21,365 nt of DNA from a virus (IMGVR_UViG_2574180227_000016), one strand, 5' to 3'; counted from the first letter of the stretch, positions 8,717 through 12,495 are shown. A program made the numbers and translations. Notes: generated from the sequence alone by a model not told the origin.

Positions 8717-9013
8717 TCAGAATTCCATCTGGATTTGTTCAGAACGCTCGGTTGCCGCCGGGCGTTTTTTATTGGTGATTCCATCAAGCGCATACTTAAA
8801 AGCCCTGCTAATCGGACTGATGTCTGATGCCATTCCGAAAGCACACAGGACCGAAGCAATAAATCTCCAGTCCGTTCTGCTTATCTTCGATTCATGACAG
8901 CCAATCATCTTTGCCAGTCCCCTTTGCGTCAGAGCTGACAGGTTGATAAGTAAATCCGTTTCAGCGCGATCAACGTCACGCTGTGATAGTTTGCTGTAAC
9001 TTGTTTGTGTCAT
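8717..9013 (-). CDS. cII: CII-like transcriptional activator
   Basis: 98 aa. The C-terminal tail [20 protein letters not shown] matches the lambda CII C-terminus; the N-terminal part is divergent. Lies between cro and O. Confidence 0.75.
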
Positions 9014-9098
9014 TTCTTAATATTTCCAATAGTGAATAGTTAGTTGAAAGGTATGCGTGGAAACGCATATGGCCTTAGTTGGTCAGATATATTGGGAC

Positions 9099-9154: not shown

Positions 9155-9370
9155 TTAAGCGGCTTGGTGTTCCGGCGGGAACACGTCATCAAGACTGACT
9201 TTTGCGCCGAACTTGTTTAGGCACGCAACAAGAGCACGGCATGTTTTAAGGTCTGGGAAGCGACGACCAGATTCCCAATGTCCGATAGCCCCCTGTGTGC
9301 ATCCAACAGCCTTAGCAAGGGTTGTTTGAGAGATCTTCAGTGACTCTCGATATTTTCGTAGGTTGCTCAT
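9155..9370 (-). CDS. cro: Cro-like HTH repressor
   Basis: 71 aa from the internal ATG with GGAGGG RBS: MSNLRKYRESLKISQTTLAKAVGCTQGAIGHWESGRRFPDL. Divergent from the repressor gene. Confidence 0.75.
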   Translation of the reverse strand: MSNLRKYRESLKISQTTLAKAVGCTQGAIGHWESGRRFPDLKTCRALVACLNKFGAKVSLDDVFPPEHQAA

Positions 9371-9396
9371 ATGCCCTCCATAGTAACCATGAAACA

Positions 9397-9425
9397 ATAA
9401 TACGATATGTACTTTTGGAATGCAA
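9397..9425 (-). promoter_or_regulatory. PR candidate promoter (TTGCAT-17 nt-TATTAT, - strand)
   Basis: Reverse complement of 9420-9425 is TTGCAT and of 9397-9402 is TATTAT, with a 17-nt spacer, about 30 nt upstream of the cro ATG. The -10 overlaps an operator repeat. Confidence 0.5.
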
Positions 9426-9473
9426 TCGAAAAAATACATCTTGTGCATGGATGGTTTTAGTACGGAGCGTAAT
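9399..9473. promoter_or_regulatory. OR operator cluster: three 15-bp sites of form AGTAC-N5-GTACT
   Basis: AATACGATATGTACT (9399-9413), AATACATCTTGTGCA (9433-9447, weaker), AGTACGGAGCGTAAT (9459-9473). The same motif recurs at OL (AGTACACATCGTACT). Confidence 0.45.
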
Positions 9474-9488
9474 AATGAGGGTATGAAA

Positions 9489-10142
9489 ATGAAATGGTAT
9501 GAACTGGCTAGATCCAGAATGAAAGAACTCAGCATAACTCAAGAGAAGTTAGCTGAAGAGCTTGGTATGACGCAGGGTGGAATTGGTCACTGGTTGCGCG
9601 GATCTCGTCATCCATCTCTTGACGAGATTGGTGTGGTGTTTAAGTACCTTGGTATTAATAACGTCTCATTCAACCACGACGGTACATTTTCACCTGTTGG
9701 CGAATACTCATCAGCCCCCGTTAAAAAACAATATGAGTACCCTGTTTTTTCTCATGTTCAGGCCGGGATGTTCTCGTCTGAGCTTAGAACCTTTACCAAA
9801 GGTGATGCGGAGAGATGGGTAAGCACAACCAAAAAAGCCAGTGATTCTGCATTTTGGCTTGAGGTTGAAGGTAACTCAATGACCGCACCAACAGGTTCCA
9901 AACCCAGTTTTCCTGACGGGATGTTAATTCTTGTTGACCCTGAGCAGGCTGTTGAGCCAGGTGATTTCTGCATAGCCAGACTTGGTGGTGATGAGTTTAC
10001 CTTCAAGAAACTGATCAGGGATAGTGGTCAGGTGTTTCTACAGCCACTAAACCCACAGTACCCAATGATCCCATGCAATGAGAGTTGTTCCGTTGTTGGG
10101 AAAGTTATCGCCAGCCAGTGGCCTGAAGAGACGTTTGGGTGA
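9489..10142 (+). CDS. cI: CI-type prophage repressor (HTH plus LexA/S24 autopeptidase domain)
   Basis: N-terminal HTH ([25 protein letters not shown]) and C-terminal S24 signature ([10 protein letters not shown], catalytic Ser; TFKKL, Lys). GAGG sits 8 nt upstream of the ATG at 9489. An ATG at 9483 could give a leaderless start. Confidence 0.85.
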
Positions 10143-10151
10143 GGAGGATAG

Positions 10152-10493
10152 ATGGCGTTCACTGACCTTGAATATCAAGCGGTCAAAAAAGAAGTTCACC
10201 AATTCATTGAAAGCATAAGGCCGCCTGAACATATCCGCAATGAACTGGATATTGTTTATAGCATCAATGACCAAACGATAGATATCGGCGAACAGCGCCC
10301 CGTGTGGCAGGGCAACCCAGGTGAAACAAACATCCTGCCATCAGCAAGAATCAAGTACATACGTTCTCTGGATAGATGGAAAATCTATTGGATGCGGAAG
10401 GATATGAAATGGCATCAGTACAGTACTGAACTTTCGCTGACTGATGCGCTTGAGCTTGTGCGTGCTGACCCGGATTGCTGCTTCTTCGGATGA
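10152..10493 (+). CDS. hypothetical protein co-transcribed with cI (cargo gene A, 113 aa)
   Basis: GAGGAGGA RBS directly after the cI stop. Tryptophan-rich C-terminal half (WKIYWMRKDMKWHQY). Flanked by a 15-nt direct repeat. Confidence 0.6.
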   Translation: MAFTDLEYQAVKKEVHQFIESIRPPEHIRNELDIVYSINDQTIDIGEQRPVWQGNPGETNILPSARIKYIRSLDRWKIYWMRKDMKWHQYSTELSLTDALELVRADPDCCFFG

Positions 10494-10563
10494 GTGAAGA
10501 GACGTTTGGATGATGGATGGTCGCAGAGATGCTCGTAGAGCATACAGCGATGCAGGAGAATTT

Positions 10564-10998
10564 ATGGCACTTAATTTAGAAAGAATATCTTTTATAACCC
10601 CATTTGATAGCAGCGAAGAACCCAACCAACCGACGCTTAATTTTACATGCAATGAATTTCCTGCGCGGCTATCAATTGATTTCAGGGTTGGTATGATCGG
10701 GTTGAAACCAAATTCAAGATATAATTTGGGTATTATGGTAATCCCCGCGCACCTAATTATAAAAAAAGGTGAGGAAATTCAATTCCCTGACGGCTCTTCG
10801 GAATCAGTTTCACTTTTCATCGATACGAAAGATAGCCATTTTGAAACAGGGGTTGGCGGACAGGTAATAGTAACATTGAAAGAAATTAGGGTCCCAGCTA
10901 AAGGGCTGTATAGTGTTATAGGGATATTGCAAGATAATGAAGACCCTAAAAATGAACTTCATAAAAATGAATCATTTTTCACCGTAGAGCTATTATGA
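10564..10998 (+). CDS. hypothetical protein (cargo gene B, 144 aa), AT-rich
   Basis: AGGAGA RBS 5 nt before the ATG at 10564. No TM segment and no recognised family. Confidence 0.55.
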   Translation: MALNLERISFITPFDSSEEPNQPTLNFTCNEFPARLSIDFRVGMIGLKPNSRYNLGIMVIPAHLIIKKGEEIQFPDGSSESVSLFIDTKDSHFETGVGGQVIVTLKEIRVPAKGLYSVIGILQDNEDPKNELHKNESFFTVELL

Positions 10999-11615
10999 GT
11001 GACGACAGTAATTTAAATAATCATGGAAAGCAAGACACCAACATATCTGAAAGCCGGAGGTTGAAGGTTGTTGGCGGTTCTGATTTTGAGGCTGAATTTG
11101 ATAATTCTCCCACCAAGGTGCAAAATAATTACATAAAACCGCCACAAACGGAGGAAGAAGTGGGAACGATCAGCAGAGAGGAACTTGATGCTCGCTTAGC
11201 TGCTAATAAAGCAGAGATGGAGTCTATTGCTTCCTCCATTAGGGCTGACATGGCTCTATCTCGTGAAAGCGTTAATGTCCAATTTGCATCACTTAATGCA
11301 GCCATAAGCTCTCTATCGTCCAAGATCGATGGAAAGATGGATAGCGCTGCTGGCGATATAAAAGCAATTAATGGGAGATTCGAAGGAATTCAAGGACAAA
11401 TAACAGGGGTTAATACCGCAATTAGTGGTGTTCAGTCGGGTATTTCTATACGATTAGCCATTTTTAGTGTCATTATCGCTGTAATAGTTGCGATTCCCGG
11501 GCTGGTATCAGCTTTAAAGTCAGACCACGCACCTTTGCAACAGCCTTCCACTTTGCAAGCGCCGCCACAAAATACCCAGCCAACAGACAACAAAAAAATC
11601 ACTCCCCAGCATTAA
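10995..11615 (+). CDS. hypothetical membrane-anchored protein (cargo gene C, 206 aa)
   Basis: ATGA overlap with gene B. Polar N-terminus, repetitive Ser/Ala/Ile-rich central segment, one predicted TM helix (IRLAIFSVIIAVIVAIPGLVSAL) and a Pro/Gln-rich tail. Followed by a strong terminator. Confidence 0.6.
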   Translation: MSDDSNLNNHGKQDTNISESRRLKVVGGSDFEAEFDNSPTKVQNNYIKPPQTEEEVGTISREELDARLAANKAEMESIASSIRADMALSRESVNVQFASLNAAISSLSSKIDGKMDSAAGDIKAINGRFEGIQGQITGVNTAISGVQSGISIRLAIFSVIIAVIVAIPGLVSALKSDHAPLQQPSTLQAPPQNTQPTDNKKITPQH

Positions 11616-11621
11616 CGCATT

Positions 11622-11649
11622 AACCCGGCCTCAGCGCCGGGTTTTCTTT
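11622..11649 (+). terminator. rho-independent terminator ending the cI operon (tIMM-like)
   Basis: AACCCGGC-CTCAGC-GCCGGGTT followed by TTTTCTTT. Confidence 0.6.
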
Positions 11650-11821
11650 GCCTCGCGATCCCCCACCTAAAAAAACATAACTCATTGTATTTATTGAAAA
11701 ATAAATAGATACAACTCACTAAACATCGCAATTCAGATCTCTCGATCACCTCCCAAGCCACTCAACCCTGCAAAATATAACCCCATAAAATACAAAACGT
11801 TATAAAAAACTAATCATATTT

Positions 11822-11864
11822 AGAACATTTTGTATTGACCCAATAAAGTACACATCGTACTATT
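11822..11864 (+). promoter_or_regulatory. PL candidate promoter (TTGACC-17 nt-TACTAT) with two overlapping OL operator sites
   Basis: -35 TTGACC 11836-11841, -10 TACTAT 11859-11864. OL sites AGTACACATCGTACT (11848-11862, perfect inverted repeat) and AGAACATTTTGTATT (11822-11836). Confidence 0.55.
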
Positions 11865-11931
11865 TAGCCATCAGCAGGATGCACCACTCACCAGGGCGGT
11901 GAATATACAACGATTCGAATATGAATCTACG

Positions 11932-11946
11932 GCGCTGACAAAGCGC
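11932..11946 (+). promoter_or_regulatory. nutL boxB hairpin GCGCTGACAAAGCGC
   Basis: Perfect 4-bp GC stem with loop TGACAAA, in the leader about 165 nt upstream of N. This sequence matches the P22-type boxB as recalled. Confidence 0.5.
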
Positions 11947-12111: not shown

Positions 12112-12495
12112 ATGACACGCAGAACTCAGTTCAAAGGCAATTCACGTTCTCGTCGTCGTGAGCGTTTAAAGGCAAAGGCATTAGCTAACTGCGTACTGGC
12201 CCGCGAAGAAGCAATAAGTTCAGAAGTATTACACCGCCCTACTCTAAGCAGAGCGCAGATTCAGGCTAAAGGTACTCACGAAACGCCTGAGCGCATAGAA
12301 GACGCTAAGCCAATTAAGTTCATGGCACAGGACGTGATCTGGCAACAGAAAGAATACAGACGCAATCTGGAGCGAGCAGCCATTGTGTACGCGAATGAGT
12401 TTGGACATAAGCAACCAGAAACTGGTGTATGTCTTCCAAACGTAGCCATTTACGCGGCAGGCTACCGGAAATCAAAACAACTGACGGCGAGGTGA
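12112..12495 (+). CDS. N: N-type antitermination protein with N-terminal arginine-rich motif
   Basis: AGGAGG RBS. N-terminus MTRRTQFKGNSRSRRRERLKAKA is an arginine-rich motif. First gene downstream of PL/nutL. Confidence 0.7.
   Translation: MTRRTQFKGNSRSRRRERLKAKALANCVLAREEAISSEVLHRPTLSRAQIQAKGTHETPERIEDAKPIKFMAQDVIWQQKEYRRNLERAAIVYANEFGHKQPETGVCLPNVAIYAAGYRKSKQLTAR

Follow-up and report, generated by a model that had tools for sequence, protein, structure and literature searches.

A stretch of DNA between two divergent genes, at positions 9371-9488 of the window (the 21,365-bp viral sequence analyzed here as a whole), raises two questions: at which base does the message for the repressor of this phage begin, and to which sites would the repressor bind? 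With good confidence, we take the locus to be a lambdoid E. coli prophage switch of the VT2-Sakai/Sp5 type, with six operators and with a cI gene that is probably expressed without a leader from ATG 9483. The operators, the promoters and the overall plan, which is that of textbook lambda, were already predicted between 1999 and 2003 for phages of this immunity type. The present analysis adds a corrected consensus, a sixth site and statistical and comparative support for the sites. From sequence comparison it also proposes 9483 as the homologous start, a leaderless geometry that appears to be family-wide, and an association between Shine-Dalgarno (SD)-like sequences and methionine at codon 3.

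A lambdoid immunity region in reversed orientation

The window holds a lambdoid immunity region in the orientation opposite to the lambda map (Table 1). Pfam assigns cI, Cro, CII and N, and gene order and Pfam identities together bear out the reversed-lambda layout assumed in the initial annotation. The cro-cI intergenic region corresponds exactly to 9371-9488; the genes are divergent, and the gap between them (112 bp) is short, as in a lambdoid switch. To the right of cI are three small genes, followed by an intrinsic terminator, the PL promoter and the N gene. The length and position of cro equal those of the annotated cro of VT2-Sakai and of the Stx1 phage.

Other features of a lambdoid switch are a repressor with HTH and S24 autopeptidase domains encoded divergently from cro, and three related dyads at both OR and OL, over PR, PRM and PL. 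The cI C-terminal domain is that of lambda cI save one residue, with the Ala-Gly cleavage site and the Ser and Lys motifs included (the motifs read QAG, GNSM and FKKL). A search of solved structures with the cI N-terminal domain returned none that is close, the best being a generic HTH (E = 6e-4), and a homologue search with this 83-aa domain returned near-identical fragments only, with no diversity. Whereas lambda Cro has a different fold, the Cro of the window and the cI N-terminal domain are HTH_3 paralogues (35% identity, E = 3e-13). The recognition helix of cI is TQGGIGHW, and cI and Cro share TQG(G/A)IGHW; such near-identical helices fit two proteins that compete for one set of sites.

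Table 1. Coordinates of genes and predicted regulatory elements of the immunity region in the 21,365-bp window
Feature	Position	Strand	Sequence elements	Remarks
Phage_CII gene	8717-9013			left of cro; replication genes also on the left
Predicted CII site	8991-9004	+	TTGC-N6-TTGT	position-for-position homologue of the AP000422 CII binding site
PRE candidate	8991-9023	+	-10 TAATAT 9018-9023	homologue of the AP000422 promoter
cro	9155-9370	-	recognition helix CTQGAIGHWESG	71 aa; HTH_3 (Pfam)
PR candidate	9397-9425	-	-35 TTGCAT 9425-9420, 17-bp spacer, -10 TATTAT 9402-9397	
Predicted OR1	9398-9414		TAATACGATATGTACTT; 15-mer core 9399-9413 = AATACGATATGTACT	over PR -10
Predicted OR2	9432-9448		AAATACATCTTGTGCAT; core 9433-9447 = AATACATCTTGTGCA	weakest OR site
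PRM candidate	9448-9476	+	-35 TGGATG 9448-9453, 17-bp spacer, -10 AATAAT 9471-9476	
Predicted OR3	9458-9474		TAGTACGGAGCGTAATA; core 9459-9473 = AGTACGGAGCGTAAT	right half GTAAT enters PRM -10
SD-like element	9477-9481	+	GAGGG	1 nt before ATG 9483, 7 nt before ATG 9489
cI	9483-10142	+		HTH_3 and Peptidase_S24; 219 aa from ATG 9483, 217 aa from ATG 9489
Intrinsic terminator of cI operon	11622-11653	+		AP000422 annotates the homologous terminator of the PRM transcript
Predicted OL3	11788-11804		AAATACAAAACGTTATA; core 11789-11803 = AATACAAAACGTTAT	annotated operator in relatives
Predicted OL2	11821-11837		TAGAACATTTTGTATTG; core 11822-11836 = AGAACATTTTGTATT	over PL -35
PL	11835-11863	+	TTGACC-17-TACTAT	predicted start near 11870
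Predicted OL1	11846-11862		AAGTACACATCGTACTA; core 11847-11861	over PL -10
nutL boxB	11932-11946		GCGCTGACAAAGCGC	
N antiterminator	12112-12495	+		first gene of the PL operon; N-peptide; Pfam-assigned

Promoter candidates

The start sequence of PL (ATCAGCAGGA) is as at lambda PL. A standard promoter scan of the window reported neither PR nor PRM; a permissive scan was needed, and both are weak matches. PR is the best minus-strand match of the intergenic region and PRM the top plus-strand match, each agreeing with the sigma-70 consensus at 8 of 12 positions, with predicted starts near 9390 and at 9483, respectively. The PR candidate is homologous to the 'major rightward promoter' annotated in AP000422 (VT2-Sakai) and AP005153 (Stx1 phage), and AP000422 labels the element homologous to AATAAT as the -10 of the cI maintenance promoter.

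The cI message probably begins at ATG 9483

Three cI start codons are in use in public records, and the practical value of our comparison, which favours ATG 9483, lies mainly in annotation. The 9447-equivalent codon is chosen by PGAP and in AP005153 (231 aa), the 9489-equivalent in AP000422 (217 aa) and the 9483-equivalent in the RefSeq record of the sal5 homologue; cI genes of the VT2-Sakai type have been described as 'annotated with different amino termini' (PMC3430580).

The -10-like TAATAAT that the initial annotation had placed just before ATG 9483 is present at 9470-9476 and is followed by six bases and the ATG. The spacing of AATAAT, 6 nt and ATG 9483 is the same as that of TAGATT, 6 nt (TAACGT) and ATG in lambda. 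Such a hexamer lies 6-7 nt upstream of only 2 of the 809 ATG triplets in the window, one of which is 9483. We compared 164 cI starts from 38 distinct sequences, split into lineages at <85% identity over the first 40 residues, with PSA-2T joined to the set by hand (16 lineages in all). In 13 of the 16, the start ATG is preceded by AATAAT, TATAAT or AATCAT at a distance of 6 nt in most cases and 7 nt in the others, and lineages that keep this spacing have repressors as little as 50% identical. The sequence of the gap is free to vary (CGGCGC, CGTGGG, GCAAAA, TAGCTT, CTGATT and others) and is not SD-like in most lineages; the phage L lineage has eight different gap sequences ahead of an identical MKTPW. 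Fixed distance, free sequence and no SD make up the signature that would be expected for a transcription start at the A of the AUG. An outlier lineage (L166), in which the OR3/-10 block lies 22 nt upstream of the ATG and GAGG precedes the ATG, is a leadered version with an SD.

In an alignment of seven N-terminal domains that are 40-54% identical to that of the window cI, M1, K2 and W5 are invariant (the family starts read MKMKW in the window, MKTPW in phage L and MKQRW in a Klebsiella phage), which places the family start at 9483. The conserved spacing and the alignment thus lend comparative support to the earlier suggestion of a leaderless cI, and we consider a leaderless PRM transcript starting at 9483 to be the most likely reading, probable though short of secure. 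Experimental mapping has shown repressor mRNAs to be leaderless for PY54 cI and for paaR2 of CP-933P (PMC4488713, PMC8630535), and for lambda cI this is long established (PMC3342100).

The features of a lambda-type leaderless mRNA are found in part: the -10 lies within 6-7 nt of the AUG, as a start at its A would require, but the sequence upstream of the start is not free of an SD, with GAGGG at 9477-9481. The window, unlike lambda, has an SD-like element and a second ATG after the PRM -10. If cI were translated conventionally from ATG 9489 via GAGGG in the lysogen too, with the operators as described, the 5' end of the maintenance transcript would lie upstream of 9477 and AATAAT would be merely OR3 and its flank. 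GAGGG does lie 7 nt ahead of ATG 9489, as the conventional ribosome-binding site that had been pointed out there; its purine-rich AGG core is present in all 32 OR variants of the close relatives described below, and the VT2-Sakai record annotates the 9489-equivalent start. A cloned 217-aa Sp5 cI (the second-ATG form) blocks zygotic induction of Sp5 (PMC3355084), so the first two codons of the 219-aa protein are dispensable. We nevertheless judge this reading unlikely. There is no better plus-strand promoter upstream, the alternatives matching at 7/12 and lying within OR1 or OR2; the 6-7-nt spacing to the first ATG is kept in lineages that mostly have neither an SD nor a second ATG; and in phage L, the Klebsiella phage and a Pseudomonas phage the only start codon available is the one that aligns with the first ATG.

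A start at the in-frame ATG 9447, giving 231 aa, is very improbable, even though the cI frame is free of stops over 9420-10142 on the plus strand and PGAP and AP005153 choose this codon. The codon lies inside OR2 and the PRM -35 and has no SD, and the extension is without counterpart in homologues, in which M1, K2 and W5 are invariant and, in Klebsiella and Vibrio relatives, a stop codon is found a few codons upstream of the MK start. When residues are counted from ATG 9483 (219 aa), moreover, HTH_3 starts at residue 11.

A tentative second start on leadered transcripts

Because GAGGG is just 1 nt from ATG 9483, it can serve ATG 9489 only. It sits in the PRM discriminator, ahead of the predicted start of the PRM message, and is therefore expected only on leadered transcripts. 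The predicted PRE transcript would be such a message, with a length inferred to be ~450 nt. The window carries both an SD-like gap and a second in-frame ATG, unlike most relatives. In the window group the six-base gaps are purine-rich (GAGGGT, AAGGGT, AAGGAT, AGGGGT, AAGGAC) and codon 3 is Met. Across the lineages, an SD-like gap is present in three of the four with Met at codon 3 and in none of the 12 without (Fisher p = 0.007), an association that rests on a small lineage sample. The three lineages with both features are the window group, sal5/epsilon34 and L154, and their gap sequences are unrelated (AAGGGT, TTAAGG and TTGGAG, respectively). The association points to a second start on leadered PRE messages. 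Under a dual-start scheme, which we put forward tentatively as a possibility of modest weight, the leaderless AUG 9483 would be used on PRM transcripts in the lysogen (219 aa) and the GAGGG-led AUG 9489 on the long CII-dependent PRE transcripts during establishment (217 aa).

Six degenerate dyads are predicted operators

The initial annotation had described one 15-mer, AGTAC-N5-GTACT, as occurring five times. The sites are present, but they are degenerate: a single exact copy occurs in 21,365 bp, at OL1 (11847-11861), and the other four have one (9399-9413), three (9433-9447), one (9459-9473) and two (11822-11836) mismatches. The two OL sites noted initially, OL1 and OL2, both stand, and a third, OL3 (11789-11803), had been overlooked. 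What is observed is a degenerate family of six members and not five copies of one 15-mer.

When up to two mismatches are allowed, the strict consensus AGTAC-N5-GTACT is not enriched across the window (8 matches compared with 5.05 expected, a count equalled in 14 of 100 shuffles), and half of these matches (4/8) lie inside OR or OL. Because the exact motif is hit once and the strict version is not enriched at two mismatches, we relaxed the consensus to ARTAC-N5-GTAYT. This predicted operator consensus, A(A/G)TAC-N5-GTA(C/T)T, describes the sites better (OR 9399, 9433 and 9459; OL 11789, 11822 and 11847). With at most one mismatch it matches six times window-wide (1.52 expected; none of 100 shuffles reaches six), and four of the six matches fall in OR and OL, an area of ~200 bp or ~1% of the window. 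OR1 and OL1 are perfect fits, and OR2 and OL3 are weak matches with two mismatches each. We also ran an unbiased dyad search over every half-site of 4 or 5 bases and every spacer from 1 to 9 bp, requiring at least two occurrences in both OR and OL. Its top dyad is AATAC-N5-GTATT, with 7 of 18 window-wide matches in OR and OL, and AGTAC-N5-GTACT ranks second. A stronger OR2 over the PR -35, by analogy with OL2, was considered and rejected; 9423-9439 reads without a convincing dyad.

The placement of the sites is lambda-like. The motif overlaps the PR and PL -10 elements, as had been noted, through OR1 and OL1. The centre of OR1 is at -16 from the predicted PR start, and those of OL1 and OL2 are at -16 and -41 from the PL start at 11870. 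Relative to ATG 9483, OR3 is centred at -17 and OR2 at -43, with OR2 abutting the PRM -35. OR2 does not cover the PR -35; this site lies upstream of that element, 34 bp from OR1.

We next compared 80 IMG/VR loci whose cI N-terminal domain has at least 97% protein identity to that of the window, together with two Stx-phage records; the set comprises 32 distinct OR and 46 distinct OL sequences. Variable columns number 7 of 60 in the operator half-sites, where every change is confined to a single variant, compared with 14 of 30 in the central five operator bases and 49 of 113 in the rest of the intergenic DNA. Half-sites differ from central bases with a Fisher p of 4e-4 and from the other intergenic columns with one of 1.5e-5, values to be read with the close relatedness of these loci in mind, their columns not being independent evolutionary events. 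The pattern is that expected of an HTH dimer that touches a pair of 5-bp half-sites spaced by one helical turn. One OR1 variant changes AATAC to AGTAC, in agreement with the A/G degeneracy among the six sites. Relatives have a run of 5 to 8 A between the PR -35 and OR2, which makes their OR1-OR2 spacing range from 32 to 36 bp; the spacings OR2-OR3 (26 bp) and OL1-OL2 (25 bp) are constant. The PRM -10 AATAAT is invariant across the 32 OR variants.

The operator reading thus finds agreement among the dyad search, the clustering, the half-site conservation, the shared helix, the lambda-like placement and the annotations of relatives, and the dyads are supported as predicted operators, three at OR and three at OL. 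That they are a chance product of A+T-rich intergenic DNA with no binding function, to which the poor showing of the strict consensus against shuffled sequence might point, is hardly credible given the clustering of the relaxed matches, the selective conservation of half-sites compared with their own central bases and the recurrence of the same half-sites with the same helix in repressors only 50% identical.

The half-site belongs to a broad repressor family

The same helix and half-sites recur in repressors that are ~50% identical to that of the window, namely those of phage L (c2), a Klebsiella phage and IMG/VR lineages. The c2 sites of phage L are AATACATTTCGTACT, AATACAATATGTGTG and AATACATCTCGTAAT at OR and AGTACATTTTGTATT and CATACACATAGTATT at OL, and Klebsiella phage ST512-KPC3phi13.5 and many IMG/VR lineages have A(A/G)TAC-N5-GTA(C/T)T at OR1 too. 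Altered helices go with shifted half-sites: epsilon34/sal5 has the helix TKGAVSHW and annotated ATAC-N5-GTAT sites, and Vibrio phage H2 has SQSAIAHW and ATTAC-N5-GTAAT. The half-site had been put forward as the immunity specificity of this phage, which cannot be defined by the half-site alone, this being common to many diverged repressor lineages. From these comparisons, A(A/G)TAC is a property of a broad repressor family and not of one immunity group by itself. 'Different' immunity types among the phages of E. coli, Salmonella and Klebsiella may cross-react, since their repressors have this half-site and the TQGxIGHW helix in common.

Comparison with VT2-Sakai, lambda and phage L

The cro-OR-cI DNA is 96-97% identical in vB_EcoP-720R6, vB_EcoP-683R2, Dewey, Louie and phi458, and ~92% identical in VT2-Sakai (Sp5), the Stx1-converting phage, Stx2 phage II, Nil2, 2851 and the PA phages, which are with 1717 members of the VT2-Sakai/Sp5 group, the 'cI2c' immunity type of PMC3430580. 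The cI N-terminal domain of VT2-Sakai is 93.8% identical over 81 aa to that of the window and has an identical recognition helix. AP000422 and AP005153 annotate six 17-bp 'putative operators' that map one-to-one onto the sites in the window, and they also carry PR, PRM, PL, CII site and terminator annotations. Half-sites agree in 11 of 12 cases, the exception being the right half of OL3 (GTTAT in the window, GTTGT in the Sakai-type record), whereas the central 5 bp differ in every operator. The two systems differ also in OR1-OR2 spacing (34 bp in the window, 32 bp in Sakai), in the type of N gene and nutL, and in the genes between cI and OL, where the window has a DUF3024 block shared with HK542 and HK244. 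In the sequence shown, the phage of the window is not an Stx phage, unlike VT2-Sakai. The six VT2-Sakai operators have been taken as given in later work, in which binding was assayed with lambda CI only (PMC9803871, PMC10742460); the EMSA on VT2-Sakai sites used lambda CI and not the cognate repressor (PMC10742460). The literature yielded no EMSA, footprint, transcript-start or N-terminal data for a cognate Sp5-type repressor, with Makino 1999, Fattah 2000 and Sato 2003 covered through annotations and citations only.

With lambda the window shares divergent cI and cro genes, three operators each at OR and OL ~2.4 kb apart, OR1 and OL1 over -10 elements and a -10 exactly 6 nt before the cI ATG. 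OR2 and OR3 are centred at -42 and -19 from the cI ATG in lambda, compared with -43 and -17 in the window. The lambda N-terminal domain and operator sequence (TATCACCGCCAGAGGTA type) are unrelated to those of the window, and the OR1-OR2 distance, 24 bp in lambda, is here 34 bp and variable, with OR2 off the PR -35.

The c2 repressor of Salmonella phage L (X94331) has an N-terminal domain ~52% identical to that of the window and an almost identical helix (KTQGAIGHWLNG). Its half-sites AATAC-N5-GTACT, GTGTG and GTAAT, its start-to-start site spacings (34 and 26 bp) and the arrangement of GTAATAAT, 6 nt and ATG are all the same as in the window. In contrast to the window, phage L has neither an SD-like gap nor a second ATG, and its PRM (TTGTCA-17-AATAAT) has a much better -35. 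Its host and the remainder of its genome, which is P22-like, also differ. Epsilon34, with its annotated ATAC-N5-GTAT sites, has the same MKM double ATG as the window.

A proposed switch

We propose that cI dimers would recognize 15-17-bp dyads of the type A(A/G)TAC-N5-GTA(C/T)T at OR and OL, and that Cro, with its near-identical helix, would be expected at the same sites. In the lysogen, cI on OR1 and OL1 would occlude the PR and PL -10 elements and so turn lytic transcription off, with cI at OL2 additionally covering the PL -35. PRM may be stimulated by cI at the weak OR2, whose centre is at -43 and which adjoins the poor -35 TGGATG, in the way that lambda cI acts from -42. Filling of OR3 by excess cI or by Cro would cover the PRM -10 and shut this promoter, through negative autoregulation or Cro repression. 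PRM transcription would start at the A of ATG 9483 and yield a leaderless cI mRNA in the lysogen, and GAGGG and ATG 9489 would operate on leadered, CII-dependent PRE transcripts only. With a lambda-identical C-terminal domain and an OL1-OR1 distance of 2448 bp, the switch may plausibly show cooperativity, OL-OR looping and RecA-stimulated autocleavage of the lambda kind.

The fixed distance between -10 and ATG points to leaderless expression as the usual mode for the repressors of many enterobacterial, Vibrio and Pseudomonas prophages, a modest but useful generalization if true. In O157:H7 Sakai, the Stx2 prophage Sp5 is under the control of a switch of the VT2-Sakai type, which therefore governs Shiga-toxin induction there. 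The immunity type is a common one: 776 of the 5426 complete E. coli genomes carry a cro-OR-cI stretch at least 90% identical to that of the window.

Predicted operator recognition and repressor domain exchange

The recognition helix TQGxIGHW and half-sites of the relaxed form A(A/G)TAC-N5-GTA(C/T)T are retained in repressors that are just 50-60% identical to the window cI, among them phage L c2, the repressor of a Klebsiella prophage and those of many IMG/VR lineages. Nominally distinct immunity types of E. coli, Salmonella and Klebsiella phages might therefore cross-react.

[quoted passage not shown] Judged by sequence, the junction between the domains is a clean recombination at their boundary. 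Fattah et al. are cited for cross-immunity between VT2-Sakai and lambda in a passage of PMC10742460, and mixed oligomers formed through the common C-terminal domain could explain it.

Comparison of 32 OR variants revealed that the centers of OR1 and OR2 lie 32 to 36 bp apart, because the A-run between the PR -35 element and OR2 differs in length (5 to 8 A). Two other spacings are fixed among the relatives' variants (26 bp for OR2-OR3 and 25 bp for OL1-OL2), and the A-run occupies the sole position where a change in length spares the core geometry of both PR and PRM. Its variation casts doubt on whether helical phase matters for OR1-OR2 cooperativity in this immunity group.

Annotation of the repressor gene

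Three in-frame ATGs are in use as the cI start in public records (see table). The start codon of the 231-amino acid form falls within OR2 and the PRM -35 element; very probably this start was mis-annotated and the error has spread through RefSeq E. coli genomes. In the epsilon34 repressor as sequenced, the conserved Trp5 codon reads TGA (AACTGA, compared with AACTGG in sal5), which fits the depositor's remark that an inactivating mutation is present in the genome sequenced.

Regions flanking the immunity genes

The nutL boxB hairpin (GCGCTGACAAAGCGC) has the same sequence as the P22/phage L-type boxB. VT2-Sakai differs from the window in its N gene and nutL, despite a homologous OL. Between cI and the terminator we find three genes, which occupy the position of rexAB in lambda; the DUF3024 gene has a match (E = 7e-42) to PDC-S43, a candidate defence family of PADLOC. 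This three-gene block likewise lies 3' of cI in phages HK542 and HK244, where cI is of lambda immunity.

Coordinates of the features compared (window positions unless a related locus, L, is named)
Feature	Position	Remark
Repressors with retained helix and half-sites	L084 540-632; L087; L092-L163	
PR -35 to OR2	9426-9434	A-run 9430-9434
cI start, 231 aa	9447	PGAP, AP005153
cI start, ATG1	9483	a RefSeq homologue
cI start, 217 aa	9489	AP000422
cI starts compared, related loci	L091 3298; L001 1947; L002 3339	
cI C-terminal domain	9700-10142	
Lambda cI	L083 1828-2541	
Epsilon34 Trp5 region	L085 2500-2512	
Three-gene block	10152-11615	
DUF3024 gene	10152-10493	
phrog_5893 gene	10510-10998	
phrog_5820 gene	10995-11615	
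nutL boxB	11932-11946
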